A stretch of 64,000 nt of DNA from Myxococcota bacterium (GCA_036338695.1 JAYZBQ010000042.1:20696-84695), one strand, 5' to 3'; numbered from the stretch's first letter, positions 26,301 to 63,861 are shown. Notes: a model not told the origin generated them from the sequence alone. Numbers and translations: made by a program.

Positions 26301-29300
26301 ATACTGAACCGAAGCGTGAGCGTCCGGCGCCACCGAGAAAGCCAGGCTGGCGGTACGGTTCGCTTTGTCGATCGAGACGACGCGCTCGCCGCTGATCGCC
26401 GGGAACCGGCGTTCGATCCAAGGCGTGCTCGCCTGCCCCGCAAGGTTCGTCGCCGTCATCCGGGTGAAGTACGGCCGCCCCGCCGTGATGGCGTTGCTTC
26501 GGATCACACGGTTCCCCGTGCCGGTGTTGCGAACCTGACCGGCGTTGTCGGTCGCGATCACGTTGTTCGTGGTCGGCGCAGCGACCTGCGTGACCACGCC
26601 CACCGTGGTGTTCGGCTGCATCGACCAGGTGACCGTACCGGTGCTCCCGGCTTTGACGTACGGACCGTCGACTTCGTACCAGTCGACGACCGTGTTTCGG
26701 TCACCGCGTCCGAGGCCGTCCGGATTCCCGCCACAGCCACCGCACCAGTCGTTGTCAAAGCGAGCGCGGAAGGTGTGACGACCCGCCGTGACGTTCGCCA
26801 CCACCTGAAGCTCGTTGAAGTCAGACTGGCTCGTCGAGAAGAGCTCTCGCCGACCGATGCTCTGCCCATCGAGCTCGAAGGTGAAGTGTGCGTTCTCGGG
26901 GCCTGCCTGCGTCGCGGAGGCGCGCAGCTTGAAGACGTACTGTCCCTCTTCAGGCGCCGTGAAGGTGTAGACACGACCGCCCGCGCCGCACTGGTGAATG
27001 TTGCCGTTGACCGGAGTACATTCGCCATCACCTGCCGGGAGCGTCTCAATCTGGACACGGCGTTGTGTTGCGTTCGCCGTGGCAGCGAGGCGCACGTCGT
27101 TGCGCAGGATCCTCGGGATCAGCTGCAGCTCCGGCGTCACCACTGCGCCAACACCGGTTCCGGCCGTGTTCTCGGACTGGACACGGACGCAGTAGGTCGT
27201 GCCTCGAGTCAAGCGGGTGAAGTTGTGGGAGATCGACGTCGCCCGACCATTGGTCCGGTACGCCGCATGGAACGCCCCACCAGCGCAGGCGTTGCCGCCA
27301 CCGCCACGGTAGATACGAATCTCCATGTCACCCGGTACGTGCGAGCGACCTGAGACCTGCATCGACGCTTGCGGGTGGTTCAGCACCGCAGTGACCCCGC
27401 TGACGCGCGGTAGTTCTTCTTCGTACCGCGGGTTGCGCATCGAGACGACGGCACCCGACGAGACCGCTGCCGGCAACAACCGACCGTTGAGGTTCACGCT
27501 GTTGTTGCCCGAGCTCATCCCCTGCTTGACCCATCCGCCGCCACGGAAGCGGGCGAAGTGGACATCACGATAGCGGTAGATGATGTGGTTGCGACCGCGA
27601 ACGAAGACCGTCTGGAACTCGACGCGCGAGCCATTCGCACGCTCACGGCAGTCCCAGCTGATGATGAAGCGTTCCGGCGCGCCGCGCAGGTGCTTCCACA
27701 TCAACCGGTTGCAGTAGAGGTTCGCAAACATCGGCGCGATCAGGTTGTTGGGATCACCCGGGCTGCCGAAGTTGGCTGGTGCGGTGTCGACGCCAATGTT
27801 GGCGCCGCCCATCGACATCCAGCCGTCGGTCGAGGCGACCAAGCGGTTGTAGATGGTGCCGAAGTAGATGAACTTGAACGGTAAGCCGATGTTCACCGTG
27901 CGGTCGTCTTGATTCACGATCTGGCTCGGGCGCAGGTCAGCGATGTTGTCCCAGCCGCGCGAGTTGTTGATCGTGGCGGTGTAACCCGCCGACGAGACCG
28001 TCGCCGCGAAGGCGTCGACGTTCGCAGCCTGGGACACCGAGAGCGGTCCGTTGATCGCACGCACCTTCACGCAATGCGTCGTGCCCTGGCTGACCGGCGC
28101 CGTGCGCCAGTCTAGGAAGCCTGCGTTGCCGGTGCGGTTCGCGATACGCGATCCTGAGCAGTTACCGCCCGATGCGCTGCCGCGGTAGACCTCAGCCTCC
28201 CAGCTAGCAGCATGACGGAACTGCGAGGCAAGGTGGATGCCCATACCCGCTTGGTTACCCGTTCCTTGGAAGAAGGTGATCTGCGGGTAGTGCAACACGA
28301 ACTCGGTGCGCAGCGAGCGCCGATCACCGCCCGTATTGAGCCGCAGGATGATGCAGTAGTGGTAGCCGCGCGCGACCGACCACGTGCGGTTCATGCTGCC
28401 TTCGCTCGGGAAGGAGCTGCTCGCCTGCAAGCCCTGCGTGTTGTTGCAGCCACCGTTTGCCGGCGAACCACCGCGGTACAAGTGCACCGTGTACGCCGAG
28501 CTGTAGGTCCAGTCAGCCGTGACATTAATACGGCCGCTGTACTGGTTCACGCTCGCACGCATCCACTGAATCTCGGGATTAAACAGGGTCCCCAAGTTGG
28601 TCGTGCGTACATCTTGCCCCAGCGCCAAGCGGGCGCAATACTGATAGCCACGCCGAATACCGGGTGTGTTCCCTGGCGTGAAGGTGTAGTCCAAGCTGCT
28701 CTGACGGTTCCAGGCGATCGGCACGACCTTGATCGGCCCGCCCGTGCAGTTGCCGTTACGATACAGCGACAGGTTGGCGTCGGCTGCGGCGTATCGGCGC
28801 CAGCGGGCGCGGACCGTAAAGCTCGCCGCTTCCTGGTTGATGCTGCCCGTCAGGCTGTGCGGTGTACCGCGACTGCTACGTACCATATGTCCTGCGACTC
28901 GGTTTCCGCCGTCGCGCGTCACCGCCTGCAAGCAGTAGTTCGTGTGCCGCGCGATGCGTGGCCACGCGTTCGTGTTCGTAAACGTGCGGGTGAACGAGCT
29001 GCTCGCCCCATAGCGCTGCCGGAACACCTCCTGGCCGTTGACACAGCGACCGTTCGAGAGCGCGCCGCCTTTGTACAAATACATATCGATCGGCGCCGCA
29101 AAGCTCGTGTTCACCTGAGCGCGAAGCTGTGGATAGTCCGGGTTGATGGCGTCAAGCCGCACATTCGTGAGGCGAGCGTAATCCACGACAGGCGTCATCC
29201 AGGCGTGCTGATACTCACGCCCTGGCCCACGATAGTTGACCAAATGAACGCAGTAACGATGCCCGCGGTACAAGCCGCTAAAGTCGTAACTAAACGACGA

Positions 29301-30359
29301 TCCCGAGAAGTTAACCTGCCAGTAGCTACCATAGCCAGACCGGACGGGGTGTGAGTAGTCACGGCACGCGTTGCCGCTCCCGTGCGAGTAGGTCCGCCCG
29401 CCTCGATACAGCCGAACGTAGCCGGACGACGGCCTGTCGAGGTTGATACGCACCCTGACGGTCGCTCGCGGTCCATCCACGGATATGTTCCTGCTCGTCA
29501 CCCTGTTTCCAAGGATCGGCGAGGTCATGCCCGACCAAACCGTTCTATGACCGCCATCGAAGTTGCGTATGTGTACGCAATATCTTTGCCCCGAGTAGCG
29601 ACCATCTGACGACCACCCTAGACCGCCAAAGGTCTGGTTGATGCTCGAACTTGTGGTCGTCCAAGTCTGCCTGTGCGAGCCACGGTGACAGTAACCGCCC
29701 GAGGCTGACCCGCCACGGTATATGTAGACCCTTGAGGTGGGATCTCCATAACCCGCAGTATAGTAGTGTCTGTACGCCTGCTGATATCTCTGTTGGTACG
29801 CCTCAAGGTAGCGCTCGCGGTAAGCCACCCTAACACGCACCTGGCGCCTCCTAAGCACCGCCACGTAGACACGCCGGAGCTCGCGCCGGTAGCCCCAGCT
29901 CCAGTAGTAGTACCAGTAGCAACGCGTGTAGCAGTAGGTTCGCCAACCGCAGCGACGCCACCACCAGCCACCCCAGCAAGAGTAGCGGCGGTAGCAGTAA
30001 CGGTAGCAGCGGTAGCCACGTCTCAGCACCCGGTAGCGAACGTACACCCAGCGATACTGCCACTCATAGGACCAGTAGTACTGCCAGCGGTATTCCCAGC
30101 GGTAAGACCAGCGATACGCCCAGCGGTATGCGGTGCGATACGCCCAGCGATAACGGATCTCGTAGTTCCGCTTGGTACCCCGGTTGAAGTTGTACCGGAC
30201 ATTAAGCCGCATGTTGTGTTGATCATGACTAACCCGGACGCTGCTAATATTCGGCGCAGGCTCCCACCACCACGCGTCCGCATCACCCGCCCAAAGACAG
30301 ATCACAAACGCCGCCGCTATGGGTGCGCTACGAACTATCGATCGTGCCAAGTTAACCAT
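23304..30359 (-). CDS. Giant (2351 aa) secreted multidomain protein: about 8 Cys-bridged Fn3-like repeats, NIDO-like and CBM60-like modules, HYR/Ig-like repeats, an acidic helical C-terminus and a Y/R/W hairpin insert
   Basis: Start reassigned to ATG 30359 (RBS GAGGAGG). Signal peptide ...GDADA|WWW. Repeats (I/L)YRGG..C...(Y/H)C; NIDO-like IGLPFKFIYFG...STDGW...IAPMFANL; CBM-like GRHTFRARFDND...DRNTVVDW; repeated DTTAP/ATDACD. Confidence 0.85.
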   Translation of the reverse strand: MVNLARSIVRSAPIAAAFVICLWAGDADAWWWEPAPNISSVRVSHDQHNMRLNVRYNFNRGTKRNYEIRYRWAYRTAYRWAYRWSYRWEYRWQYYWSYEWQYRWVYVRYRVLRRGYRCYRYCYRRYSCWGGWWWRRCGWRTYCYTRCYWYYYWSWGYRRELRRVYVAVLRRRQVRVRVAYRERYLEAYQQRYQQAYRHYYTAGYGDPTSRVYIYRGGSASGGYCHRGSHRQTWTTTSSSINQTFGGLGWSSDGRYSGQRYCVHIRNFDGGHRTVWSGMTSPILGNRVTSRNISVDGPRATVRVRINLDRPSSGYVRLYRGGRTYSHGSGNACRDYSHPVRSGYGSYWQVNFSGSSFSYDFSGLYRGHRYCVHLVNYRGPGREYQHAWMTPVVDYARLTNVRLDAINPDYPQLRAQVNTSFAAPIDMYLYKGGALSNGRCVNGQEVFRQRYGASSSFTRTFTNTNAWPRIARHTNYCLQAVTRDGGNRVAGHMVRSSRGTPHSLTGSINQEAASFTVRARWRRYAAADANLSLYRNGNCTGGPIKVVPIAWNRQSSLDYTFTPGNTPGIRRGYQYCARLALGQDVRTTNLGTLFNPEIQWMRASVNQYSGRINVTADWTYSSAYTVHLYRGGSPANGGCNNTQGLQASSSFPSEGSMNRTWSVARGYHYCIILRLNTGGDRRSLRTEFVLHYPQITFFQGTGNQAGMGIHLASQFRHAASWEAEVYRGSASGGNCSGSRIANRTGNAGFLDWRTAPVSQGTTHCVKVRAINGPLSVSQAANVDAFAATVSSAGYTATINNSRGWDNIADLRPSQIVNQDDRTVNIGLPFKFIYFGTIYNRLVASTDGWMSMGGANIGVDTAPANFGSPGDPNNLIAPMFANLYCNRLMWKHLRGAPERFIISWDCRERANGSRVEFQTVFVRGRNHIIYRYRDVHFARFRGGGWVKQGMSSGNNSVNLNGRLLPAAVSSGAVVSMRNPRYEEELPRVSGVTAVLNHPQASMQVSGRSHVPGDMEIRIYRGGGGNACAGGAFHAAYRTNGRATSISHNFTRLTRGTTYCVRVQSENTAGTGVGAVVTPELQLIPRILRNDVRLAATANATQRRVQIETLPAGDGECTPVNGNIHQCGAGGRVYTFTAPEEGQYVFKLRASATQAGPENAHFTFELDGQSIGRRELFSTSQSDFNELQVVANVTAGRHTFRARFDNDWCGGCGGNPDGLGRGDRNTVVDWYEVDGPYVKAGSTGTVTWSMQPNTTVGVVTQVAAPTTNNVIATDNAGQVRNTGTGNRVIRSNAITAGRPYFTRMTATNLAGQASTPWIERRFPAISGERVVSIDKANRTASLAFSVAPDAHASVQYRAAGTNRFTGCAGGNWQTLATGDSRGSHTARIANLNDNTYYCWRVVAEHSRGQPWRTVIQGPSRHFVFDRTAPRVTPPSYRVYEQDVQAGSRIAIARLGTPRVDDAVEGISLVATPFYCPRQVAQSCVAWDESAFRQKGTHYVRWRGVDAAGNEGFSAFQRFDVRDTTRPAYSGGPVKIVEAQSVAGTIVTLKNLTTNAPDANNFQATDACDARLDVTQETLVNGRYVSAATHRFARSTNPDGVGDHTVRVRVRDDSGNMTVGTYPVRIVDTTAPTFTLVPRAIVGLRDGCVTAYLPRPSVLDNSYPNNRLTLTKSHPDGPEDQGGTCWNEGGVMEGDIRVHTVRWTIADPQGNSRSTNMRVEVRRPTLTARVRVTSGGAEVEMGTYVRDDVSVQVTLLTRNQNCNEDPRTGQWDWIPIPTRVIQQPNQNLFTGIFAEDGNYIGGYVMVWHCDEFALIPDLSFGIDTIAPTHDFEKLINNAVDPDNVDTFLRQFVGNRLDLGGVTMNDERSGIQSITMILNPGDPGRPWGGEANLLRHTVRGRGVLITGSREVSGLDCVPGSEICVTANERPYLDMARLRTFDDDRTNQHRLRLQIRDFAGNVNTTDRYFLLRDYRSSLVDVKARVETMLEGAGGEDYEDDLNSTVTHLTESLGYWDARTRENAGPGFRDRQIAWSPSFSRAVNAANTLLLARRNDGPRVLSTFSKDIGSAMLGEMTMYVSTMEELRSESDLALEWWSNYIGRANAQLASGRQSNIGSVQAARARDGYNLLAHLYELEYDLYSRVQETRQTAMSVFGNEDSDAEELDEARIGLTVAIQRFLQWVFREQLRTARDVSRVGYTQLQGAIEKMGNVTRCTDQLILQGLNDRQFTLCYLNIVEVVDYFREIQSALVDTTHWRTTLAHTVYAMLDVSLHYSLNALTTFDGDEEDELDYREDQMALTGIAEWRAGMEQLQSGDVDGALNRYMANRCRIVRLYNRYWYDEEDPLLAEIDEAEYCQ
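30045..30152 (-). repeat. Degenerate 12-bp tandem repeat (TAY CGC TGG NNN) x9 encoding (Y-R-W-x)9
   Basis: Translation YRWA YRTA YRWA YRWS YRWE YRWQ YYWS YEWQ YRWV. Confidence 0.85.
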
Positions 30360-30396
30360 GTCTCTCATCCTCCTCTTTGCGCCTACCGCTAAGCGC

Positions 30397-31773
30397 CTAA
30401 GGGCAATCTGCCGGGATGCGGCAATGCCCTTGAATACCTTGTCCGTTCGCCACACAGCATGAGCCTGCGAGCTCATTGGTGCAGGTGGCTTGATTCTGCG
30501 TCACGCAAGCGAGCGTGCAGTACCATCTCGTGGGGTCATCAACACCCTGCAAGCACACCCCGCCACGCTGCTGACACGCCATGGGGTTGTTGCGAAACTC
30601 TGTGCAATCCGTGCCGATGAAGACACGCGGCCCAGCATCGTCGGGAGGCGGCGTTGCGTCAAAGGCGCCAAGATCCGGAATAGGACCGTAATCGAAGTTT
30701 GACGCGTCCGGCCTTGGGCCCTGACCAAAATCTGGAATCGGTCCGTCAAAGCCTGGAGGCAGAGTGTCGCCGATGATCTGAGCATCTGGCAGCGGCGGGG
30801 GCGGCGCGCCGTCTGGACATTCCCGAGCGTCTGCACACCCAGTACCCCACCAACCCATGTCTGGCTGAGGACCTGCGTCCTCGTTAAACCAACCGTAATC
30901 CGGGCGCGGCCCAATGTCCGCAGGCGGTTCGGCGTCTGGGAAGCCCAGATCCGGCAAGCCACCCTCGGGCGGGCCTTGATTGCCAATGTCTGGAAAGGGA
31001 CCCAGGTCCATCATGCCAGCATCCGGAGCCCAGAGGTCATCCACCGGAACGTCTGGCAACCCACCGTCAGCGTTGCCGATGTCGAGCCGCGCACCGTAGT
31101 CGGGGATACCGCCGTCGGCGAAGCCGTAGTCAGGAAGACCGGGACCATCAAAAACGCCCACATCGTTGTAGCCGCCAAGGTCCATACGTCCCGTATCGAT
31201 CATCGCAACATCGCCCGTGTCCCAGACCAACACATCCGGTAGCGCATCCACGTCGCGCCCGAGCATGAACTCCCCCGTGGTGTTGATGGCGGCCACGAAC
31301 TCGCCGTCAACGTAGGTCGACTCCACGGACTCCCACAGCTCACCGGCTTGGCTTCGATGCCACACCTTATAGCGCGCCAGCTCACCGACATCGAAGTTGT
31401 CCGGAACAACGATCGTGACCGTCGCCTCAACCGTGAGGCTCATGAAGGGGCGGACTCGCCACCCGTTGCCCTGGTGCACCACACCGACGGTTGGCGGGTT
31501 GTCCCAAACGGGGAAGGTATCGATAAGGCAATCGATCTCGTCGATACTGTGATACTGGATCCGAAACACGCCGCCCGCCGCAGCGCAGGCCTTGAAACCT
31601 GCGTCGTTCGCTCGGTTCCGCGGATCCGGCTCACCAGCAGCGACACAGCTACCGTCTCGGCAAATATACCCCGGACGGCAGTCTCCAGCGCCGACACACG
31701 TCCCTGAGCTGCCTACTGTGCAGCCTGCTCCAGCACCTAACATTGCGCTCAACACCACCAGATTGCGCAGCAC
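30397..31773 (-). CDS. Cys-rich lipoprotein with a ZU5-like domain and a long acidic P-D-x-G repeat linker
   Basis: Lipobox GAGC. N-terminal C-x5-C-x4-C-x4-C module, more than 15 PDxG/DxG units, C-terminal Cys-rich module. Ends 37 nt upstream of the giant gene. Confidence 0.75.
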   Translation of the reverse strand: MLRNLVVLSAMLGAGAGCTVGSSGTCVGAGDCRPGYICRDGSCVAAGEPDPRNRANDAGFKACAAAGGVFRIQYHSIDEIDCLIDTFPVWDNPPTVGVVHQGNGWRVRPFMSLTVEATVTIVVPDNFDVGELARYKVWHRSQAGELWESVESTYVDGEFVAAINTTGEFMLGRDVDALPDVLVWDTGDVAMIDTGRMDLGGYNDVGVFDGPGLPDYGFADGGIPDYGARLDIGNADGGLPDVPVDDLWAPDAGMMDLGPFPDIGNQGPPEGGLPDLGFPDAEPPADIGPRPDYGWFNEDAGPQPDMGWWGTGCADARECPDGAPPPPLPDAQIIGDTLPPGFDGPIPDFGQGPRPDASNFDYGPIPDLGAFDATPPPDDAGPRVFIGTDCTEFRNNPMACQQRGGVCLQGVDDPTRWYCTLACVTQNQATCTNELAGSCCVANGQGIQGHCRIPADCP

Positions 31774-32009: not shown

Positions 32010-35000
32010 CTACGGCGCGCTGACCCCGTAGAAGACGTCCTTGTCGTCTTCACGGTTCGCCCGCTTCTCCCAGACGGCGTGAATCGCGCCCCCCGGATCC
32101 ACAGCTGCGCTCGGCTTGTAGTCGTCTTGCTGGTCGTTGTCCTCGCCGTCGCGAGACTCAGTCATCACGACCACAGCCGGCTGCTCTCCGCCACCATCAT
32201 AGCTGCGATCGTAACGCCGTAAGACGATGTCCTTGTCGCCGCCTGCGCCGCGCGTCGGCGCGTCGGTTTGCCAAATCACCGAGACGGTCTGCGTCGTCAT
32301 GTCGCCTTCGACGCTGTGCACCACGATCTCCGGGCGGCGGTTAGCCGCGGTCGTGAACTCATCGCCTGCCGACGCCAGGAACGCACCTTCACCGTCCGTG
32401 CCACTCGTAAACGGAGCGCCCTGCTCGGTGTAGGCCCAGCGTACCGCTGTATTTTGACCGGCGCCACAACCGCCCTCAGCTAGCCACGCCACGTAGGCTC
32501 GCCCGTTGGGGTCCTCGGGATCAACAGCGACCACAGGGCTCGAGGTCTCCCGGATCGGGAACCCGTCCTCATCAAGGTTGCCCGCCTGACCGCAGTTTCC
32601 GTTGACCAACAGCGCCTCATTCCCAACGCCCGTATTCACGTAGAGGATGTCCACGTCATTCTCAGCGTCGCCGTCGAGGTCGCCATCATCTTCCCACACG
32701 ACGTGCGCAGCGCCTGAACCGTCCATCGCGATGTCCGGCTTGTCAGCGCCGTCTTCGCCGCCAGCCGTGTTGTCCGAGATGATCTGAGGCGTCCAAGCGC
32801 CTTCTTGGCTGGTCGCTAGGTACACCTCATACGCGCGCCCGGTGTTCTCGGACTGCGTGTCCACAACAAAGACGACCTGCGGCCCCATCGAACCAACGGC
32901 GATGCGCGGGTAGGTGGCGTCCATGCCAGAGATCCCTTGGGAAGTCAGCGAGGTGACATCCCCGAGACCGCCCTGAGCCTGTATAAACCCAGCCCAGCAA
33001 ACACCCGGCGTCTCAGGACTCTGCGGCTGCGGCGTCGCTCCCGCGTTGTTGCAGCTTGTATCGGAGATCGTTGGCGCTGTACCATCCCACGTCGTGTAGA
33101 CGACATTGGCTGATCCGTCGCGTCCACCGACACGCCCGGAGTCCGTCCAGACAAAGTGCCCGACCCCGTTTTCGTCGACGGCGACGTCCGGGGTGCTCCC
33201 ATTCGCCGAGTTGCGGACGTTGAGGATCACGGGGTCGCCCCACGTCCCATCCTCACCCAAGTGAGCCGCAGCGATCAACTCCATCTCACAAGCGTTCAGC
33301 CCGATACAGGTTTCCCACGTCGCGTAGACATCACCGTTCGGACCCACGCCGATGCGCGGCACCTGCGAGTTCCAGCTGTCTTGCTCGTTTGAGACGATCA
33401 ACGGCTCGCCGCTGCGGAACACAGCGATCTCGGAGCGGGTCTCCGTCCCTAAGCCGTCCGCTGCCACCACCCAGAGTTCGATACGAGCACCCTCTTCCGG
33501 GATCTGAATCACGCCAGTGTAGCGGCCGTCGTCTTCACCGGTCGGCTCAAGCGCCACGCCGTCACCTTCGCCGATTCCGACCCGGACGCTGTCGACGCCA
33601 TTGTAGGCGTCATACGCCTCCACCACGACGTTCGTGGCGCCCGTGTTGACCCACGAGTTCGCCCGGGGAGTGATCCACGTCACCACCGGGCCGGTGTTGT
33701 CCACGTTGAACAGACGCGCCGGGTTGTCTTCCTCGGCGGAGACGTTGCGCGCCATGTCGATCGCCGACAGGTAGATGTTGTTGTCGCCCTCAGCGAGGTC
33801 TACCGTCAGGCAGAACGCGCCGTCTGCGTCAGCGCTCCCCGAAGCCTGCGCTTGAATCACGCCGCCGGTGTCGGTGTTCTCGAGGCTCACCTCAGCATGC
33901 GGCTCCGTCGTCCCGCAGACCTCAATCGAGGCACCCGCCGTCGAGGTGGCATCTTCAGCGATCGGATTGCCGTCTTCATCTTTGTACACCACATCGGAGA
34001 AGGTTGGCGGGGTGAAATCCGTCGTAACCCACACATGCCGCTTACGCGTCTCGCGCTCACCTAAGACCGCCCAGACGCGCACGTGCTGAGTGACCTCTGC
34101 CGTGTCATCCGCAGCGTCGCAGGTCGTGCACTCCTTGGTGATATCCTGGCTCCACTGCACCTCATCGATCGCCTCGCGGAACTGCAACTCTGAGCTTCCA
34201 TCGATGCTCCCCTTGACCTCGGCGTCTTCACAGACCACCCCGATCATCGGGTACATCGAATAGCGATCATCGCCGGCGCCACCGACTAAGCTTGTCCAGA
34301 CACACAGACCAGCCTGTTCTTCACCGTCGACCGTCTTGGTGCAGTCCTTCTCGCTGTACTCGAGCGGTCGATTCTGGCGAATATTTCCCTCGCCGTCATA
34401 GGTCCGGTTGGCGATCGTCAACTGGCAGCCTACGTCATCGTAATCGACCTCTTTCGAGATCGGCGCCGAGCGCACATTCTGGGCGGTGACCGCAAAGAAG
34501 GTGAAGTTGTTCACATTCCGCGCTGGGTCGTCGGTGGTCTGGAGGTTCGCTCGCGCTTCCCAAGTCGTCGCCGCGTCTGGCGCCACAAGCAATGCATCGA
34601 CCACGACCTCGCCCTCAACCTGCTGGACCATGTAGACGCCAGTACCAGCCGGCTTGGTGCCGCCCCAGGTGATGCTCTGCTCTGCATACACAAAGACATC
34701 GCTGACCTCCGGAGCCGTGACGGTCACGGGATCCGGACGTACGGCGAGCAGGATCTCTACGCGTGTCTTTTTGCTTTTGTTGCCCGCGTTATCCACTGCG
34801 CGCAGCTCGAAGCTGTTCATCCCTTCAGCGAGCGTCACCTCGAAACTGAACTCGGTGGTCTCATCGAGCGGGGTCACCTCGGTGTCGCCGTTGTGGACCG
34901 CAACGCTGGCCTGCTTGATGCCAAAGATCGTGACCACGTCAGCGCAGCCGTCCGCTTCGCATTTGATCACGACGGAGGGCACATCCGGCGATACGATCGG

Positions 35001-35099
35001 CGCTTCGGGCGCCGAGTCATCGACCGTGCTATCGCCGCAGCCTGCGACGAGGGCAAATGGTGAGATCATTAAAGACAGCTTTAACAGGCGCCAGTTCAT
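32010..35099 (-). CDS. Large acidic lipoprotein with Ig-like repeats and a C-terminal beta-propeller
   Basis: Start reassigned to 35099. Lipobox VAGC; repeated L.EG.N...L.A.D.AGN.S Ig motif; repeated P.(I/V)AVD..G..H.VW blades. Confidence 0.8.
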   Translation of the reverse strand: MNWRLLKLSLMISPFALVAGCGDSTVDDSAPEAPIVSPDVPSVVIKCEADGCADVVTIFGIKQASVAVHNGDTEVTPLDETTEFSFEVTLAEGMNSFELRAVDNAGNKSKKTRVEILLAVRPDPVTVTAPEVSDVFVYAEQSITWGGTKPAGTGVYMVQQVEGEVVVDALLVAPDAATTWEARANLQTTDDPARNVNNFTFFAVTAQNVRSAPISKEVDYDDVGCQLTIANRTYDGEGNIRQNRPLEYSEKDCTKTVDGEEQAGLCVWTSLVGGAGDDRYSMYPMIGVVCEDAEVKGSIDGSSELQFREAIDEVQWSQDITKECTTCDAADDTAEVTQHVRVWAVLGERETRKRHVWVTTDFTPPTFSDVVYKDEDGNPIAEDATSTAGASIEVCGTTEPHAEVSLENTDTGGVIQAQASGSADADGAFCLTVDLAEGDNNIYLSAIDMARNVSAEEDNPARLFNVDNTGPVVTWITPRANSWVNTGATNVVVEAYDAYNGVDSVRVGIGEGDGVALEPTGEDDGRYTGVIQIPEEGARIELWVVAADGLGTETRSEIAVFRSGEPLIVSNEQDSWNSQVPRIGVGPNGDVYATWETCIGLNACEMELIAAAHLGEDGTWGDPVILNVRNSANGSTPDVAVDENGVGHFVWTDSGRVGGRDGSANVVYTTWDGTAPTISDTSCNNAGATPQPQSPETPGVCWAGFIQAQGGLGDVTSLTSQGISGMDATYPRIAVGSMGPQVVFVVDTQSENTGRAYEVYLATSQEGAWTPQIISDNTAGGEDGADKPDIAMDGSGAAHVVWEDDGDLDGDAENDVDILYVNTGVGNEALLVNGNCGQAGNLDEDGFPIRETSSPVVAVDPEDPNGRAYVAWLAEGGCGAGQNTAVRWAYTEQGAPFTSGTDGEGAFLASAGDEFTTAANRRPEIVVHSVEGDMTTQTVSVIWQTDAPTRGAGGDKDIVLRRYDRSYDGGGEQPAVVVMTESRDGEDNDQQDDYKPSAAVDPGGAIHAVWEKRANREDDKDVFYGVSAP

Positions 35100-35277
35100 A
35101 GGAAACGCTCCAAGGCCTAATACCATTGGGGTGGAGTTTGTCAGGCGAAGTCCCGACGCGCAACCCATCCCGTGATGTCGTTGTGAACCAGTGAGCGACA
35201 TGACGCCGACAAACCTTTAGCTCGAAAGGTCACGGCGAGTCCTTCACGAACGCTCTTGTCTTCAGTACATCTACCCT

Positions 35278-37179
35278 ATGAGCGACCACGTCTTTCTCAT
35301 CATCGACGGCCAAACCAAAGGCCCCTTCTCGCAGCAGCAGATCCGCGACGGCCTGAGCTCAGGCACGATCAACCCCCAGACGCTCGGAGCACTCAGAGGC
35401 GGGGCGGAGTGGAAACCGGTCGCCGAAGTGCTCGACGACCTCGCTCAAGGTGCCGGTGCGCCCAGCGCGACGGAGAACCTGCTCGCTGCGCTGCGCGACC
35501 GGCTCCGTCAGCAAGGCCCGCTCGAGCGGCTCGGCTTATCAGGCGATCCTTCGCCGATGGTTGTCGACAAGACCTACCAACGCCTCAAGGCTCAACTCAA
35601 AGAGCGCTTAGCGAGCTCGCCCACGCCGCGCGGTAAAGCGCTGGCGAAGGAAGCGCTCACGTACCTGAAAGCGGCGGTCGAGCAACTGCGCGACCCGAAA
35701 GAGCGCTTCATCCTCAAGCGCGCTGCCGATCTGGGAGTGGATCCGGCGAAGGATGAGAACCGCAGCTACCTCTCCACGCTCTACTACCGCGACGAGGCTC
35801 AGGCGGCGTTTGATGCAGGGCGTATGAGTGAGGCGCTCGGCTTGTTCGACCAGCTGCTTGAACTCCAACCCGACAACGCTGACGCCGTCTGGCAGCGCGC
35901 CCTCGCCCTGTACCGCAGCGACCCACTGCGCACGCAGGAAGCGCTCAGCGAGCTCAAGCGCTGCTCCAGCACCTGGCCCGACAAAGTGGAGCCGGTCCGT
36001 AGCCTCGCCACCTTACACCTCGAGCTCGGACGGCGCGACGAGGCGAAATCGCTGGCGCGCTCGGCGCTCGAGATCGCCCCGAACGACGCAGAGTCCAAGC
36101 GACTCCTCGATATCCTCTCGGGTAAAATGTCCGCCAGCGCGGCGTCGTCCAGCGGACAACCCGACGTGTCGGGCGAGTTCGCAAACATCAAAGGTGAGGC
36201 CGCGACCAAGTCGAAAAAGCAACGTAAAAAGGGCTCAAAAAAGGCACCAAAAACGAAGGGCTCAGGGGGCGAATCATCGACAGACTCTCTTGGCTTTGCA
36301 AAAGTCGCGGTCGTCTGTGCGCTCGTGTTCGGCGGGCTCTTCCAGATGGCGCACCAGACCCCGGACTCATGCTTTCCACAGGGCGACCAAGAGTACTTCT
36401 TTCAGCCGGACACCTATTACGATTTTCGAGACCTGCAAGCCGAACAGCTCCCCGGCCAGGCCTGCGCGCCGAGCCTTCACCCCCCTGAAGGCAGCGGTTA
36501 CTTTATCCAGTTCGAAGCGCAGCTCGCGTGTGAGGAGAATCTGGAGGCGGACAACCCGTCCGTGTCTGCGGAGGCGGTGGCAGCCGAGTGCACCTCCATC
36601 CCCGTCGCATCGCCTGGCCACCCGCGGTCATCGGAGACCTCGTTCTTTTACGTTCGCCGCGGCATCTTACTCGGCGCCGGCATCTTATGCATTGCGCTCC
36701 TCGGATCCGGACGAAGCATCGGCGAGCGCTTTAAAAATCTAGGTTTTGAGCTCGACGGAACGGTGGGTGTTGCGCTTGGGTTCGGCCTGCTTGTCGGCTT
36801 TTTCTCCCCGCTCCAGTTTACCCTTGCGCCCCTTGGCACCTTGCTGGCGCTGACCGCGTTTCATGTGCTGTGCGAGGAGATATTTTTTCGAGGGTTTGTG
36901 ACCCGCAAGCTGCTCGACAGCTTTGCAACGCCGCTTGCGCCGGTGGTCCTATCGGGGCTGCTCTTCGGTGTGTACCATATCACCTTCACCAGCTTTTGGT
37001 GGATCACCCCGATGGCGATCCCAGCTTGGGTCGGGATGGTCACAATCGGCGCCGGTATACCGTACGCAGCCTTGTATGCGCGAAGTAACTCGATCCTGGT
37101 ACCGCTGGCAGCTCACCTCTGCGTCAACCTCTTGATGATGTTCCGATCACACGGCGCCGTGAGCGGCCTGTTGGCATAA
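35278..37179 (+). CDS. GYF_2, J-like helical region and TPRs fused to a CPBP (CAAX/Abi) intramembrane protease
   Basis: DGQTKGPFS...WKPV GYF_2 motif; TPRs; CPBP motifs EEIFFRG, FGVYH and AHLCVN. Confidence 0.85.
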   Translation: MSDHVFLIIDGQTKGPFSQQQIRDGLSSGTINPQTLGALRGGAEWKPVAEVLDDLAQGAGAPSATENLLAALRDRLRQQGPLERLGLSGDPSPMVVDKTYQRLKAQLKERLASSPTPRGKALAKEALTYLKAAVEQLRDPKERFILKRAADLGVDPAKDENRSYLSTLYYRDEAQAAFDAGRMSEALGLFDQLLELQPDNADAVWQRALALYRSDPLRTQEALSELKRCSSTWPDKVEPVRSLATLHLELGRRDEAKSLARSALEIAPNDAESKRLLDILSGKMSASAASSSGQPDVSGEFANIKGEAATKSKKQRKKGSKKAPKTKGSGGESSTDSLGFAKVAVVCALVFGGLFQMAHQTPDSCFPQGDQEYFFQPDTYYDFRDLQAEQLPGQACAPSLHPPEGSGYFIQFEAQLACEENLEADNPSVSAEAVAAECTSIPVASPGHPRSSETSFFYVRRGILLGAGILCIALLGSGRSIGERFKNLGFELDGTVGVALGFGLLVGFFSPLQFTLAPLGTLLALTAFHVLCEEIFFRGFVTRKLLDSFATPLAPVVLSGLLFGVYHITFTSFWWITPMAIPAWVGMVTIGAGIPYAALYARSNSILVPLAAHLCVNLLMMFRSHGAVSGLLA

Positions 37180-37223: not shown

Positions 37224-37298
37224 GGGCCGGTAACTCAGTGGTAGAGTGTCGCCTTTACACGGCGGGTGTCGCTGGTTCGAACCCTGCCCGGCCCACCA
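37224..37298 (+). tRNA. tRNA-Val(TAC)
   Basis: GGGCCGG/CCGGCCC acceptor stem, anticodon arm TCGCC-TTTACAC-GGCGG, GGTTCGAACC, CCA. One T-T mismatch in the T-stem. Confidence 0.92.
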
Positions 37299-37304: not shown

Positions 37305-38090
37305 TCACGCTCGGCGCTCAGCGAGGCGTCGAGCGATGACCGCCATCCCAAAGACAGCGATCGCAAAGACGACGTAACCGGGTAGGTCGTGGACCCATCC
37401 GTCCCACGGGCCGCGCGCCACCCACCGACCGATCCAAACCGACAACGCAACGCGCACGCCGTTGACGACGACAGCTAGGACCGGCGCAGCCGCCAAAAAG
37501 ATCAGGTCATGACGCCAACTCAAGCCCGTGCCCAACAACAACAAGACCGCGCCCGTCAAAGCGAAGAGGCCTTCGACCTGATTGAGGCCAGCGCACTGCT
37601 CGTTGATACGAAGTGGTTCGTACCCCACCTGTCCGGCCGCCACGTTGTGGTGCGCAATGTCGCAAAAGCTCGCACAAGGGATCTTTAGATAGACGGTATC
37701 GCCGTGGAGCGCGTGGTTCAGCTCGTAACTCGGGTCAATCCCAGCCAGCGCACCACCGAGCTCGGCTGTAACCACCTGCAGCGGCCACTGAACAGACGCC
37801 GCGATCCACGGGTCCCAAGGCAGCGCAAGCAGCGCCATGACCACGGCAGGCCAGCGCTCGATGCGTCGCCATGCGATCCAAGCGACCGAAAAAACAGCGG
37901 CGGGCATCCAGAAGATGCCCGCAACAGTCACCAAACTGACCACCCCTCCCGGGATGGCGCTGGAGCGGTCCGAACCAGGCGCCCTGACCACGATCACGAG
38001 CAGTGCAAGCACCACCGCGATGCGAAAGGTCAGCAGCGGGTCGGCCGGCTCGAGCCAAATATGCCAGATCGTCGCCCCGCAGGCGACCAT
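37305..38090 (-). CDS. Exosortase/archaeosortase-family transpeptidase
   Basis: Multi-TM protein with the catalytic triad motifs INEQCAGL (Cys), NGVRV (Arg) and VHDLPG (His). Start moved to 38090 to clear the small upstream gene. Confidence 0.85.
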   Translation of the reverse strand: MVACGATIWHIWLEPADPLLTFRIAVVLALLVIVVRAPGSDRSSAIPGGVVSLVTVAGIFWMPAAVFSVAWIAWRRIERWPAVVMALLALPWDPWIAASVQWPLQVVTAELGGALAGIDPSYELNHALHGDTVYLKIPCASFCDIAHHNVAAGQVGYEPLRINEQCAGLNQVEGLFALTGAVLLLLGTGLSWRHDLIFLAAAPVLAVVVNGVRVALSVWIGRWVARGPWDGWVHDLPGYVVFAIAVFGMAVIARRLAERRA

Positions 38091-38113
38091 CCACTCAGCG
38101 AGCTGGCGGAGGC

Positions 38114-38281
38114 TCAGCGGCGAGCAGCCCAGAGGCTCGCTGCGCCAACGCCAAGCAGCCACAATGCGGCCGGCTCAGCGCCACCACCGCCGCCACCGCC
38201 GCCGCCGCCGCCGCCTGCAAACGCAGCAGCCGAGACAAGGACCAGCGCAAAGCCGAACACGGGTGCAAAGGTGCGAATCAT
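38114..38281 (-). CDS. 55-aa minimal PEP-CTERM-like protein (signal peptide, Gly12, AEP-TM-RR); not in the ORF track
   Basis: Hand translation MIRTFAPVFGFALVLVSAAAFA-GGGGGGGGGGGG-AEPAALWLLGVGAASLWAARR*. RBS GAGGAG 5 nt upstream; adjacent to the exosortase. Confidence 0.85.
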   Translation of the reverse strand: MIRTFAPVFGFALVLVSAAAFAGGGGGGGGGGGGAEPAALWLLGVGAASLWAARR

Positions 38282-38349
38282 GAGAACTCCTCTTCCGGCT
38301 TGTCTTGAGAGACATGCCCGTCATGTTTGGTCAACTGTTTCCTCTACGC

Positions 38350-38365
38350 CGCAAGACTTGTGCCA
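38350..38365 (-). promoter_or_regulatory. Sigma54 promoter for the mini-CTERM/exosortase pair
   Basis: TGGCAC-AAGTC-TTGCG matches TGGCAC-N5-TTGC. Confidence 0.75.
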
Positions 38366-38422
38366 GTGACGCAATTATGACGAAACCCCCCTACAAATGG
38401 GGTTCGAGTCCGACCCTCGACA

Positions 38423-38451
38423 CTCAAGTTGACAGAATTCGTCAACTTGAG
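38423..38451. promoter_or_regulatory. Perfect 11-bp inverted repeat; candidate enhancer-binding site or lon 3' hairpin
   Basis: CTCAAGTTGAC-AGAATTC-GTCAACTTGAG, about 60-85 bp upstream of the sigma54 box and 3 nt past the lon stop. Confidence 0.5.
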
Positions 38452-47510: not shown

Positions 47511-48088
47511 GGCGACGACGCCTGATTGACGATCTGTTGATGGGTCAGCAGCTCACTGATCTGCCCGTCCCGAAAGCGCACCTCTGCGATGCGTTCGAGC
47601 CCAGGACGCTTTCGGCAAGGCGGTAAATCCAACACGCGCCAACGCTCGGCGTCACCACCGACCGGCTGAAAGCAGCCCAACCAGTAGCGCTCGAAGTCGG
47701 CTCGAAACGAGCCGACCTGCAGCGCTTTCATCCAGATCGCCTCAGTCGGGTCTGCGCTCGCTAGTTGAGGCAGCGCCTCTTCGCCGGCGCCGTCAAAGAC
47801 ATCCTCAGCGCGCAGCGCCTCCTCCTCGATCGGGTTGCGCGCTTGCGTCCTGCGGATGCGCGCCGCCAGGGCGATCGCCTCATCGCGCACGGTATCCGGC
47901 CCCTCAAACTGGTCCAGCGCACGTAAAACCCGCGCAACCTCCTCGCCATGCAAACCGCTGACGAAGTCCTGCTTGATCGCCGCGGAGTACGCCGTCCTGA
48001 TGTCATCGAGGCGCCGCTGGGCTTCGCCCTCGTCGGCACAACCAAGCGCCAACGTGAGCAGGGCGAGCGACAAGAAGCAGCGGCGCAT
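47507..48088 (-). CDS. Hypothetical lipoprotein following pilY1
   Basis: Start 48088 (TGATG overlap with the pilY1 stop); lipobox ALGC. Confidence 0.7.
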   Translation of the reverse strand: MRRCFLSLALLTLALGCADEGEAQRRLDDIRTAYSAAIKQDFVSGLHGEEVARVLRALDQFEGPDTVRDEAIALAARIRRTQARNPIEEEALRAEDVFDGAGEEALPQLASADPTEAIWMKALQVGSFRADFERYWLGCFQPVGGDAERWRVLDLPPCRKRPGLERIAEVRFRDGQISELLTHQQIVNQASSP

Positions 48089-51000
48089 CAGTACACTTCG
48101 CGCCAATGCATGATCAGGTTCTTAGGCCGCGACTGATTCGGCTGCGTCTCCGGGGTGGCGTTGTTGTTGAATCCGTCCACAGGAACCAGCTCGACCCCGG
48201 CGTTGGTGACACGTCCCAAGGTCTTGAGCTGCCCCGAGTTGTAATAATACAAGCGCCCGTCCGCTAAGAAGGTTGGCGGCGCAGGCTCGGAGGAGCAGGT
48301 GGTCTCGCGCGGATCGCAGATGATCTCGTTGCAGGTCTCGGTGCAGGTATCGAGGTCGACGCAGCGCATCCGCTGGATCGCGCCGGCGCAGCCTCCACCC
48401 CCTTGAACCGTGGTGTAGATAGCGACCCCTTTCGAGACGATCGGTGATGAGACCGCGTACTCCTGCGCTCCCAGTCGTGCGTTGCGAGCTCGCGTCAGGT
48501 CGCACCCGGCGCGCAACGCCGAACCACGTGGGTCGCGCGGCTGCTGCTCTCGCAGGACGCGCACGGTCCCGCGCCGCACCGGCCGGCCTTGCCCCCCGAC
48601 GTCGGCCGCCGTTGCGATCAAGTTGAACTGGGCTGCGTCCCGCTCGCGCATGTCGATAACCGGCGCGCCTAGCTGCGCTCGGCGGCCCAAAAGACCGTCA
48701 GCGCCTGTACGCTCCGTCAAGCGCCACGCCGCGCCGTCCGTTCGCCCTCGCCCGTGCAGATCGAGGGTCAACATCCGCCCGCTGGTGGTCCCGACGTATG
48801 CAAGGTCGAGCGCCCCGTCGCCATCACGATCGATCGCTGAGACGTCGGTCATGATGCCCTCGCCGCGGAACTGCGAGAGCACGTAGCGATGCATGACCCG
48901 ACCGGTCGTCAGGTCCACGACCATCACCGCCGGCAGATCCCGGCACCAATCTTTCGGACAGCCAGCACCTCGCGGGTATTGTCCGTTTCCGATGCCCGAC
49001 GCGACGATCATCACCGGCTTAGTCCGGTCGCCGCCAATATCCACATAGCCCACGGCGGGGGTCGAGTGGACCTCGCCGAGGAAGCGATCGCCAAACTCGA
49101 ACACCGGCACGGGCTCGAGCGGCTTGGAGACGTCCAAGACGACGATCTTCTTCGCGCCCACCGCCGGGCAGATAAGCAACGACGACCAGCCCCCGCGTTC
49201 TTCGGCTTGCTCGAGGTTGAGCTTGGCTTCAAAGGCTCGGCAGCGCCCGTTCATCAGGCTCGGCTTGTCACCACGAAACCCTGCAAAGTCAGCCGTAAAG
49301 ACATCTCGTAGCAGCTTGTGGTTGGCGCGCGGCAGGTAAGCCCACGCCTCCTCGCCCGCCTCATGCGTCTGGCGCTGGGGCGCAAAGCCGTCAGCGCTCG
49401 ACGCGTTCAAAAAGAAGGCGTGGATCAGGTGCCCTGCACCGACATAAGCCATGGGCGGATTACCGCCTACGACCGATGCGTAGAGCTTATAGCTTGCGTC
49501 CGTATCTTGGCGCGTCGTGTTACGACCAAAGCGCGGCGTCACGGGTGAGCTGTGCACTAGCGGGCCCAGCTTCCAGACCCCATCGTCGTCGATAAACCCA
49601 CGGCGCTTATCCACGATCTCATCGCCCACGCGAGCATCCGGCTGGGTCGTGTCGATGTGGGCGCCGCGCAGCTTCATGATCATACGCGACATGGCGACGC
49701 GCCGGTCATAGTCGTCGCTTGCGTTTCCGTTCTCGTTCAAATCGGGGACATCCCAACAGCGCGCATTGTTGGGCGCATTGAGCGGACAACGAAGGTCGAA
49801 TGAGCGGTACCACTGCATCCGCTCACGCCGCGGGATGGGCCAGATGACCTCTGATCGCTTGAGCGACCCCGTCCGCCAGTTCGCTGGGGGGGTGTCGCTC
49901 TCTTGCACCTCGATCCCCGTGTAAATACGGCGCGGCGTCCGCACGCTCGCCCGCCCAGACCGGTCCGGATAGCTCGTGCGTCGAGACAAGCGCTCGCCAG
50001 CGTCCCAGAGGATGCTCGGATCGCCTCGAAAGGTCCACTCGCCCGAGAACGGCTGGTCCTCATGAAACAAGCGAAAGGCGTACAGCCGACCACGGTTCCC
50101 TGGCTGCTGGACAATCGGCACGAGGATCCCGTTATCGACCACACGCCCCACGTCACTCGGGACCGTCCACAGCGTCGTCACCTCTGCTCGACCGCCCTGG
50201 TACTCGCCGCTCAAGGCCGTCTGAACGGCATCTTCGAGGACATTGTGGAGCTCCTCAGGGGTTCGCGCATAGAGCGCTCGACCCACATTGTTGTTCACGA
50301 CGTATGGCATCGTCGGGTGAATCGCCTGCCCGCCCGTGCGCGCCAGCGCATCGAGATTGCTGCGCGCCGTGACGTTGAGGTAGTGCGGACCAAAGCCGAC
50401 CACGATGGTGTCGGAGGCAGCGACACCGAGCGAGCGGCTCCGGTTCTGGCTGATCGTATTTTGAATCTGCGAGACGCTGTTGTTCGCGGTCGAGCATGTG
50501 CTCAAGCCCCGGTGGTCCCAACTGTCCGTGATCAACATCGTGAAGTGCTTGCGACATTGCTCATCCGCTGCCGAGCCGCGCTGCACGTTGCGCTGGTGCA
50601 CATACCGAGCCGCCATCATCATGCCCTGCACGTTACTTGCGCCCAGCCCGCGCATCTCCACCGGCCCTTGAGCGTCGACCCACGAGACAAACTCGCTGCG
50701 GTTGTTCTCGATCGGTTGCGAATCGACCGAGATGAAGTTCCGCCGGACGTCGCGCCGGTTGAAGTCACCGACCGAGCGACCCCAGCAGCACTGATTCCTT
50801 GAGTTGCACCGGCTGTTACTCCCTTCGGGACCCCACATCGGCAGGCTCTGACGCGCCCCGCGCGGTCCCGCGGGGTAGCGATAATTCGCGGCCTCGGCCG
50901 TCTGCCCAAGGTCTGCGTTCTGCCCCGGCCTCAAGAGGGTCATACGGAGCCCCTCAGCGGTCTCAAACTGACCGCGTAACGCCGTGCGCAGATGCTGCAA

Positions 51001-51252
51001 ACGAGAGCGCCCTTCGCCCAGGCGGCACAGCGTCCGACCCCCACGAAAACGCGGGTTTCGATCGCCGTCACCATAGACCTGGTTGCGCTCAAATGAACCG
51101 CACCAATCGTACGTCATAGAGGCGTGGTTATCGACGGCGATCACGAGGTCGGGCTCGACCGCCTGTTCGACCGTTCGAGGCTTGTAGTCGGCCGAGGCGG
51201 TGCCCGCCGAGACGAGGATGATGATGGCGAGCGCACGAAACAGCATGGTCAC
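48088..51252 (-). CDS. pilY1: PilY1/PilC-like pilus tip adhesin (vWA-like N-terminus plus beta-propeller)
   Basis: WDAGERL, WKLGPLVHSSP, GEEAWAYLP, Ca loop DRDGDGALD; follows the minor pilin genes. Confidence 0.85.
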   Translation of the reverse strand: MTMLFRALAIIILVSAGTASADYKPRTVEQAVEPDLVIAVDNHASMTYDWCGSFERNQVYGDGDRNPRFRGGRTLCRLGEGRSRLQHLRTALRGQFETAEGLRMTLLRPGQNADLGQTAEAANYRYPAGPRGARQSLPMWGPEGSNSRCNSRNQCCWGRSVGDFNRRDVRRNFISVDSQPIENNRSEFVSWVDAQGPVEMRGLGASNVQGMMMAARYVHQRNVQRGSAADEQCRKHFTMLITDSWDHRGLSTCSTANNSVSQIQNTISQNRSRSLGVAASDTIVVGFGPHYLNVTARSNLDALARTGGQAIHPTMPYVVNNNVGRALYARTPEELHNVLEDAVQTALSGEYQGGRAEVTTLWTVPSDVGRVVDNGILVPIVQQPGNRGRLYAFRLFHEDQPFSGEWTFRGDPSILWDAGERLSRRTSYPDRSGRASVRTPRRIYTGIEVQESDTPPANWRTGSLKRSEVIWPIPRRERMQWYRSFDLRCPLNAPNNARCWDVPDLNENGNASDDYDRRVAMSRMIMKLRGAHIDTTQPDARVGDEIVDKRRGFIDDDGVWKLGPLVHSSPVTPRFGRNTTRQDTDASYKLYASVVGGNPPMAYVGAGHLIHAFFLNASSADGFAPQRQTHEAGEEAWAYLPRANHKLLRDVFTADFAGFRGDKPSLMNGRCRAFEAKLNLEQAEERGGWSSLLICPAVGAKKIVVLDVSKPLEPVPVFEFGDRFLGEVHSTPAVGYVDIGGDRTKPVMIVASGIGNGQYPRGAGCPKDWCRDLPAVMVVDLTTGRVMHRYVLSQFRGEGIMTDVSAIDRDGDGALDLAYVGTTSGRMLTLDLHGRGRTDGAAWRLTERTGADGLLGRRAQLGAPVIDMRERDAAQFNLIATAADVGGQGRPVRRGTVRVLREQQPRDPRGSALRAGCDLTRARNARLGAQEYAVSSPIVSKGVAIYTTVQGGGGCAGAIQRMRCVDLDTCTETCNEIICDPRETTCSSEPAPPTFLADGRLYYYNSGQLKTLGRVTNAGVELVPVDGFNNNATPETQPNQSRPKNLIMHWREVY

Positions 51253-53876: not shown

Positions 53877-53896
53877 GCGATTCTCGCCGTGGAAAG

Positions 53897-53912
53897 TGCA
53901 GACTTCGTGCCA
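53897..53912 (-). promoter_or_regulatory. Sigma54 promoter for the fimU-pilVWX-pilY1 operon
   Basis: TGGCAC-GAAGT-CTGCA in the 42-nt intergenic gap. Confidence 0.7.
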
Positions 53913-53918
53913 GCTTGA

Positions 53919-63252: not shown

Positions 63253-63750
63253 TTAGACGCAGTCGTTGTCGTCGTTAGTCAGGCTGTTTGCGTCGGTCAT
63301 ACGCCACGAATCGATATCTTCGTTGTTATCGATGTTACCCGTTGCGCAGCTGGTGAACATGTCGTTCGCCGCCTCTGCTTGGGTGTGGTTCGGCGGAGTG
63401 CTGCAGTTGTTCTGAGTCGTGGTCACGCCGTTGCACATGGCACGCGGGAAGCCGGAGTTCGACTGCGGGCCCTGCTCACACGGACGGCAATCACGAGGGG
63501 TGTTGCAGTAGGTGTAGCGGTTACCTGGCTCCGGATCGAAGCCGATGGTGTTGAGCGCCGAGTACTCATCATACTCTGCGAAGTAAGACTTCTGAGCCTG
63601 GAAGAGCGCCTTCAGGTTGCTCTTGGCTTCCGACTGCTTCGCGCGGCACTGGAACTTGATGAAGTTCGGGATGGCGATCATCGCCAAAATACCAATAATC
63701 GCAACCACGATCATCAGCTCGATCAAAGTAAAGCCCTTTTTAATCTTCAT
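63253..63750 (-). CDS. pilA: Type IVa major pilin
   Basis: KKG|FTLIELMIVVAIIGILAMIAIPNFIKFQ.RAKQSEAK.NLKA (myxobacterial PilA-like). Start 63750 with RBS AGGAAGG. Confidence 0.95.
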   Translation of the reverse strand: MKIKKGFTLIELMIVVAIIGILAMIAIPNFIKFQCRAKQSEAKSNLKALFQAQKSYFAEYDEYSALNTIGFDPEPGNRYTYCNTPRDCRPCEQGPQSNSGFPRAMCNGVTTTQNNCSTPPNHTQAEAANDMFTSCATGNIDNNEDIDSWRMTDANSLTNDDNDCV

Positions 63751-63845
63751 GTTAGGCTTCCTTCCTTTCATGGACCTTGTAAAACAGTCCGGTGTGAGTC
63801 CTCGATGCCCACAGCGGACATCGCTTCTGTTTCGCTTATCTTAGC

Positions 63846-63861
63846 AGCAAATGACGTGCCA
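63846..63861 (-). promoter_or_regulatory. Sigma54 promoter of pilA
   Basis: TGGCAC-GTCAT-TTGCT, a consensus match. pilA is sigma54/PilR-dependent in Myxococcus and Pseudomonas. Confidence 0.85.

Follow-up and report, generated by a model that had tools for sequence, protein, structure and literature searches.

A conserved polyglycine micro-substrate gene paired with a dedicated exosortase in Myxococcota: a candidate ribosomal lipopeptide

Several dedicated exosortases with tiny substrates have been catalogued, namely XrtJ with its TM-motif-TM target, XrtE with VPEID-CTERM proteins, and XrtX with PID-CTERM proteins. Oligoglycine has an established role as a nucleophile in the chemistry of sortase A. 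In the model described for ArtA, the tail of the substrate is swapped for a membrane lipid (accessible text of PMC7157517), and a rhombosortase substrate is reported to end in glycerophosphoethanolamine (accessible text of PMC6219818). One-step transpeptidation by bacterial exosortases is regarded as unproven in the accessible part of a recent preprint (Haft 2023, 10.1101/2023.06.07.544157). AatD, an Lnt homolog, acylates an N-terminal glycine that has been exposed by SPase I, and more glycines lead to more acylation (accessible text of PMC7943197). We found no paper that brings together exosortases and Lnt-type N-terminal lipidation, in a literature search outside which most subscription journals lay, including Haft 2012.

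Here we describe a locus in the genome of a Myxococcota bacterium (GCA_036338695.1; 3.36 Mb, 93.6% complete). The window, that is, the whole stretch of DNA analysed, is 64,000 nucleotides long (JAYZBQ010000042.1:20696-84695). A sequence-only reading of the window had proposed a selected micro-substrate with a cargo of about 12 glycines, its own exosortase, and a sigma54 promoter, all of which our analysis supports.

The micro-substrate gene, its exosortase, and its promoter

The genes are arranged in the order tig-clpP-clpX-lon, peptide, exosortase, followed by a tRNA-Val gene and a converging gene for a GYF2-TPR-CPBP protease (Table 1). The translation of the 55-codon open reading frame matches the earlier one exactly, and the mixed GGC/GGT glycine codons and the GAGGAG ribosome-binding site were found as previously described. 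The micro-gene is real and under strong purifying selection. Across nine loci, the last eight glycine codons show 154 synonymous and no non-synonymous pairwise differences; when the tail is included, the counts are 458 synonymous versus 144 non-synonymous pairwise codon differences.

Table 1. Features of the locus and its surroundings (positions within the window)
Feature	Position	Strand	Basis
pilA (ATG 63750) with its own sigma54 box at 63846-63861	63253..63861	-	context
Inverted repeat with 11-bp arms; core TGAC-N7-GTCA at 38430-38444	38423..38451	.	conservation of core
Sigma54 -24/-12 promoter, TGGCAC-N5-TTGCG	38350..38365	-	consensus match, conservation
Shine-Dalgarno GAGGAG, 5 nt 5′ of ATG	38287..38292	-	sequence reading
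Micro-substrate gene, 55 aa: signal peptide, Gly12, AEP, TM, RR	38114..38281	-	ORF translation and family conservation
Predicted Sec/SPase I signal peptide, 22 residues, ending A-F-A	38216..38281	-	A-x-A rule
Gly12 cargo; Gly(+1) is the predicted acylation site	38180..38215	-	codon counts and alignment
PEP-CTERM-like tail: AEP signature, transmembrane helix, RR	38114..38179	-	profile score and family alignment
Dedicated exosortase, 270 aa from a CTG overlapping the peptide stop; Cys175, Arg222, His243	37305..38117	-	profiles, alignment
tRNA-Val(TAC), bystander between the exosortase and CPBP genes	37224..37298	+	tRNA search
GYF2-TPR-CPBP glutamic intramembrane protease, recurrent exosortase neighbour	35278..37179	+	profiles and similarity
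Ig-repeat lipoprotein, neighbour in the host genome, G004/G005, and G057	32010..35201	-	similarity, E 3e-16

SPase I would cut the precursor at Ala22|Gly23, leaving an invariant glycine after an A-x-A site and no lipobox; cleavage sites were assigned throughout by the A-x-A rule rather than by SignalP, and those of two genomes (G045 and G112) are open to other readings. The tail carries alanine in place of the first proline of Pro-Glu-Pro and scores just under the PEP-CTERM profiles (19.1 against a cut-off of 20.7 for PF07589, and 12.9 against 16 for TIGR02595). It is the sole PF07589 match in the genome, and the genome-wide scan for other PEP-CTERM proteins that had been suggested accordingly returned this one tail and no second substrate. 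Elsewhere in the genome (G000:C57:39429-39974, + strand), a putative lipoprotein of 149 aa carries a Gly8 run close to its N-terminus.

The neighbouring enzyme passes the exosortase family cut-offs (57.8 versus 25.7 bits for PF09721; 50.9 versus 23 for TIGR04178) and is the only exosortase detected in a genome-wide search. Its intact Cys/Arg/His motifs, noted earlier, correspond to Cys175, Arg222, and His243, and Asn219 is also present; in a 12-row alignment C175 and R222 are invariant and H243 is present in at least 90% of rows. The suggested HMM classification placed it within the exosortase family and in no named subfamily, and it falls outside the XrtE clade in an exosortase tree that omits 4 of 39 rows (L358, L351, L166, and L221) in which the core pattern could not be located. 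Structure prediction gave a helical membrane protein (pLDDT 83.6), for which Foldseek returned no match in the PDB at E up to 0.001. By analogy with ArtA and rhombosortase, the enzyme would cleave the sorting signal near AEP.

The most probable start codon of the exosortase is CTG 38117, rather than GTG 38162 or ATG 38090. In all 13 loci a CTG in the exosortase frame overlaps the TGA of the peptide gene. The frame is closed one codon 5′ of this CTG in G004 and G005, which have no ATG, GTG, or TTG before codon 34, and codons 1-33 are identical at 25 of 33 positions in the exosortase frame compared with 12-13 in the other frames. Together, the closed frame and the codon identities point to reinitiation at the CTG, by which the enzyme would be kept low relative to its substrate; the pairing of a strong ATG with a weak CTG likewise suggests that substrate is in excess over exosortase. 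A programmed frameshift fusing the two products appears less likely, as the junction lacks a slippery sequence.

The sigma54 box that had been recognized upstream was confirmed. The strict consensus has only four matches in the 3.36-Mb genome, one before the micro-gene and another before pilA, and the box is present in nine of ten family loci examined, the tenth being broken off upstream. The 11-bp palindrome reported further upstream is also present, with the qualification that only its core, TGAC-N7-GTCA, is conserved in relatives. This core is kept in 9/9 promoter-bearing loci, 77-79 bp (seven loci) or 129 bp (two loci) upstream of the -24 box. Since the outer arms are not conserved, the element reads as a likely activator site. 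It was also considered as a terminator hairpin, a reading that we rejected on account of the missing T run, the lack of conservation in the outer arms, and a folding energy of only -2.5 kcal/mol in G002. Seven sigma54 activator-like proteins are encoded in the host genome. The best match to the PrsR regulator model (TIGR02915) in the host genome scores 388 bits against a cut-off of 502.6, and none of four genomes exceeds it. Sigma54 boxes were not seen at the related loci of families f24 and f2, so sigma54 control would be specific to the host's family.

Conservation, genomic neighbours, and the Lnt paralog

A mini-ORF conserved upstream of related exosortases had been anticipated, and the peptide gene indeed lies directly 5′ of the exosortase gene in 8/8 metagenome loci encoding exosortase relatives, as it does in the family genomes G004 and G005. 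The full peptide gene is kept in all 13 family loci, several of which are near-identical; about ten distinct peptides were seen. AEP is invariant within the family. The cargo occurs as Gly11, Gly12, or Gly-Ser/Ala-Asp-Asn-Gly8; thus its length (11-12 residues) and first residue are kept despite changes in composition. In G001 and G002 the contig bearing lon stops within the peptide gene, ahead of the glycine repeat, and no trace of the locus was found in G003, a genome that is 59% complete. The breaks (L241 and L242, respectively) fall at the polyglycine repeat, which implies that the gene is systematically lost from metagenome-assembled genomes (MAGs).

Outside the family, the pattern G6-x-EP-xx-LxLL gave 23 matches across GTDB, of which two (L141 and L153, in MAGs labelled Myxococcales) are of the peptide type and the other 21 are off-frame or unrelated. 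Full-length matches to the family profile were found in 3 of 401 genomes of the phylum. Given so few true matches, the pure Gly-AEP form looks family-restricted. Among the listed matches of the pattern G8-x-E-P in viral contigs (at least 120 stretches, judged by eye), none combined a signal peptide with a tail.

Glycine-rich micro-substrates, some of them fused to an exosortase, nevertheless occur in five other Myxococcota families, and the recurring architecture was recorded in f2, f5, f17, f23, f24, and f28. A database protein related to the peptide (P0025) pointed to G057, a genome of another family, in which the gene order is pilA, a glycine-rich micro PEP-CTERM gene, a TPR-CPBP protease gene, an Ig-repeat lipoprotein gene, an Lnt-like gene, and an exosortase gene. 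Reading upstream of short exosortases revealed micro-substrates in six further genomes (G060, G121, G095, G100, G075, and G006), and substrate-exosortase fusions were found in four (G073, G112, G130, and G138). The substrate is detached from the exosortase in G045, and in G050 an exosortase is present and no substrate was found. An alignment of 12 unfused substrates from four families shows no invariant positions other than Ala(-1) and Gly(+1), with Ala(-3) nearly invariant. The tail motifs differ among families, and several f24 substrates have no E-P/P-E-P-like motif. Monophyly of the module exosortases was not established in the tree.

Several further observations were made at these loci. 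In G130 (L311:682-4521) and G138 (L351), a single long frame spans the micro-substrate, the exosortase, and a large repeat-containing surface protein that is Cys-rich and has Gly-Glu repeats. Two tandem exosortases occur in G112 (contig C69; L233/L268), the second with a fused substrate. In families f23 and f24, the CPBP and exosortase genes flank a gene for a conserved protein of 235 aa that matches no NCBIfam model (L263:1235-1942, L262, L261, L264, L265, L266, and L309); this protein is absent from the host genome. Seven database PEP-CTERM proteins of 58-73 aa with a short glycine-rich cargo (P0016, P0017, P0022-P0025, and P0027) come without genomic context and were not counted.

The GYF2-TPR-CPBP protein shares 36% identity with its counterpart in G057 (E 6e-33). 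Its family is found in 21 of the 401 phylum genomes, and an exosortase is present in 18 of these 21, compared with 98 of 401 overall; ten of the 21 genomes seeded the profile, and among the other 11 an exosortase is present in eight. The CPBP catalytic motifs are intact in the host genome and lost in G095, G073, and G112, which indicates that the module can dispense with proteolysis by this protein; the protein (35278-37179; L262, L267, and L268) is likely a pseudo-protease in some lineages. G065 retains the CPBP gene, and the exosortase, the substrate, and the Lnt paralog were all not found there. A predicted complex of the exosortase with the CPBP domain scored 0.00 and gives no verdict. The Ig-repeat lipoprotein had no tblastn match in 22 loci other than those named in Table 1. 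The intervening tRNA-Val gene was considered as an integration site, which is unsupported, the order lon-peptide-exosortase-CPBP being kept across the family.

The micro-gene directly follows pilA in a single genome, G057. From this adjacency and the promoter type common to the micro-gene and pilA, the product is most likely linked to pili. Positions 48088-63861 (- strand) form a type IV pilus region that by eye contains PilY1-like and minor pilin genes, glycosyltransferase genes, and an ABC system, as well as an O-antigen-ligase-like gene (TIGR03097, 29.5 bits, under the cut-off); its content suggests pilin glycosylation. Elsewhere in the window, positions 23304-31773 (- strand) encode a secreted protein of 2390 aa whose N-terminal segment is of low complexity and rich in Arg, Tyr, and Trp. 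A 458-aa lipoprotein containing Asp-x-Gly repeats is also encoded there and is conserved in G004 and G005.

An Lnt-family gene adjoins the exosortase gene in six genomes from four families (G057, G060, G121, G075, G006, and G073). The host genome encodes a standard Lnt on contig C50 (244 bits) and a second Lnt (G000:C48:116609-118027; 59 bits) with an intact E/K/C triad. The second is unlinked to the exosortase in this family, the exosortase locus being on C42, and in two trees it clusters with the paralogs found beside exosortases and is separated from the standard Lnts (support 100/99 in one tree, and SH 100 in the other, which has 29 rows). Among 80 genomes searched, 61 from a relatives set and 19 hand-chosen, the paralog clade comprises 15: all six of the host's family, G006, G057, G060, G073, G075, G095, G100, G121, and G082. 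The Lnt of G082 is paralog-like on a long branch, and neither exosortase nor substrate was found within 9 kb of it. None of the plasmid matches listed (25 of 64) is annotated aatD, all annotated rows being lnt, and no neighbour of the paralog was recognized by eye as an aat gene. Judged from the plasmid-match annotations, the paralog is probably not closely related to AatD.

Every genome with both the paralog and a full substrate (11/11) has glycine at the +1 position. In the genomes that yielded no paralog, which are MAGs 88-98% complete, the +1 residue is Leu (G045), Gln (G130 and G138), or an ambiguous Trp/Gly (G112), so that Gly(+1) stands at 0/3 if the ambiguous fourth is set aside. One genus holds both G073, with glycine and the paralog, and G130 and G138, with glutamine and no paralog found. 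As background, Gly(+1) follows 12 of 136 heuristically predicted signal peptides in the host genome and was seen by eye in 5 of the 16 substrates adjacent to XrtE. Fisher's exact test of 11:0 versus 0:3 gives p = 0.003, uncorrected for kinship, a value that overstates the association because the 11 genomes represent about five lineages against two or three and because the sites were read by rule.

Proposed product and alternative explanations

A conserved Gly12 gene preceding the sole exosortase, together with the Lnt neighbour in relatives, makes a short lipid-tagged glycine peptide the likely product. Among the products offered by the sequence-only reading, an oligoglycine lipopeptide is retained as the best, with the change that the evidence for lipidation points instead to the Lnt paralog acting at the N-terminal glycine. 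With about even chances of being correct, we propose that the precursor would be acylated at Gly1 by the paralog and have its tail removed by the exosortase, yielding an N-acyl-Gly12 lipopeptide of the envelope. Sigma54 and some activator bound at TGAC-N7-GTCA would transcribe the peptide and exosortase genes together, the strong ribosome-binding site and ATG driving synthesis of the peptide and the weak overlapping CTG coupling in little enzyme. The cut by SPase I would bare Gly1, and the paralog would acylate its alpha-amine while the C-terminal helix still holds the peptide, a step suggested by co-location, co-occurrence, and the AatD precedent. By analogy with ArtA and rhombosortase, the exosortase would then cut at or near AEP, and the peptide would be either joined to an amino-lipid (phosphatidylethanolamine, for example) or freed by hydrolysis. 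At the surface, the product would most likely act alongside type IV pili, and the TPR-CPBP protein may be an accessory factor. More tentatively, and probably not correct in full, the system could represent a class of ribosomal lipopeptides in which the paralog acylates the N-terminal glycine and the exosortase places the C-terminus on a phospholipid, so that an oligoglycine of fixed length, anchored at both ends, would act with pili or bridge membranes.

The locus could also be an ordinary dedicated pair, in which replacing the tail by a membrane lipid takes only the exosortase, the amine of Gly1 is left unmodified, and the Lnt paralog has some other target. Such a pair would fit the known logic of the exosortase family and the ArtA model (accessible text of PMC7157517), and it sits well with the unlinked paralog of the host's family and the four related systems in which no paralog was found. 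Nevertheless, the recurrent adjacency of paralog and exosortase and the way in which Gly(+1) follows the presence of the paralog make this explanation unlikely in our view. We give rather little credence to the small protein being an uncleaved membrane subunit or regulator of the exosortase. The fusions to the exosortase N-terminus in four genomes, the variable signature motif (no E-P in f24, f2, and f23), and the translational coupling of both genes could all be explained in this way; the tripartite tail with its invariant AEP in the host's family, the lack of any other substrate in the genome, and the apparent excess of substrate suggested by the two start codons speak against it.

A released, agr-like peptide signal, with the TPR-CPBP protein as its maturation protease or receptor, is similarly improbable. 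The CPBP neighbour recurs in six families, its motif losses would suit a protein that only binds, sigma54 control would be appropriate, and AgrB/MroQ offer an analogy. Polyglycine, however, has almost no identity information, and the CPBP gene persists in G065. The sortase-like nucleophile of the sequence-only reading fared worst. Here the free N-terminal glycine would resolve the exosortase thioester, giving a (Gly12-Ala-Glu)n product that is cyclic or polymerised head to tail, or else would serve as the acceptor to which other proteins are joined. This would exploit the classic transpeptidase nucleophile and account for a cargo length held at 11-12, but no sortase was found in 4/4 family genomes, the scan gave no second substrate, and three related systems have no Gly(+1), their exosortase substrates starting with Gln or Leu. 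Acylation would moreover block the amine, and we consider this alternative very improbable.

If the paralog does acylate Gly1, glycine N-acylation would be a property not just of enteric AatD but also of a free-standing Myxococcota clade, and exosortase sorting would be tied to N-terminal lipidation. With a single enzyme, a single substrate, and a product of ~14 residues, every added group would be visible by mass spectrometry, and the product would therefore be small enough to reveal exosortase chemistry.

Comparison with described systems

The small size of the substrate had been considered unusual, a view that we do not share, since substrates next to XrtE-type exosortases of the same phylum have cargos of 11-14 residues (L167, L180, and L183) and XrtJ targets are ~57 aa long. 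XrtJ (TIGR04199, TIGR04200, PF27850) resembles the present system in being a dedicated exosortase with a ~57-aa target that has two hydrophobic segments and a short motif, a likeness drawn from model names and lengths. An atlas feature match of 0.90 (153 of 256 features) is likewise a lead only. XrtJ differs in being 522 positions long, and the host cargo differs in being polyglycine. TIGR04199 and TIGR04200 exceeded their cut-offs in none of five genomes and had no match at the locus.

With XrtE (TIGR04162) the locus shares one small low-complexity substrate 5′ of the enzyme and a CPBP protease in the system. It differs from XrtE in that the host CPBP is a separate GYF2-TPR protein, the motif is AEP, and an Lnt paralog belongs to the module. 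TIGR04162, which L009 exceeds (154.3 versus a cut-off of 150), did not match the 270-aa host exosortase. The VPEID-CTERM model (TIGR04161) had no match in the host genome, and three XrtE-bearing control genomes were also under its cut-off. At L167, L180, L183, and L234, substrates with cargos of at most 14 residues lie upstream of XrtE-type exosortase/CPBP fusions, with the VPEID-CTERM model under cut-off. The XrtX/PID-CTERM models NF046080 and NF046081 did not match the locus at E up to 1. The resemblance of the tail to a GlyGly-CTERM/PEP-CTERM hybrid, also raised in the sequence-only reading, was not borne out, the best rhombosortase match (TIGR03902) scoring 44.8 against 84 bits and none of four genomes exceeding the cut-off.

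The PEP-CTERM/XrtA (EpsH) system with PrsK-PrsR-PrsT is similar in tail architecture, in the Cys/Arg/His enzyme, and in the sigma54 box with an upstream activator motif (accessible text of PMC1569441). It differs in substrate number, the host having one compared with a median of eight in the same text, and the host exosortase scores 37.1 against a cut-off of 208 bits with the XrtA model (TIGR03109). AatD and CexE/Aap likewise combine an Lnt homolog bearing the E/K/C triad with a glycine-rich start whose invariant glycine follows a predicted SPase I site (accessible text of PMC7943197 and PMC8689077), whereas the host target is a 12-residue peptide that is held by its C-terminal helix and has an exosortase as its partner. 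DAG-RiPPs, as far as the accessible text of PMC13056109 describes them, are also ribosomal peptides with a signal peptide that borrow lipoprotein-type lipidation; theirs involves Cys/diacylglycerol and MNIO enzymes, in contrast to the host peptide, which lacks both Cys and a lipobox and carries a sorting tail. What the locus adds to the known tiny-substrate pairs is the link between the Lnt paralog and Gly(+1), together with the wider module.
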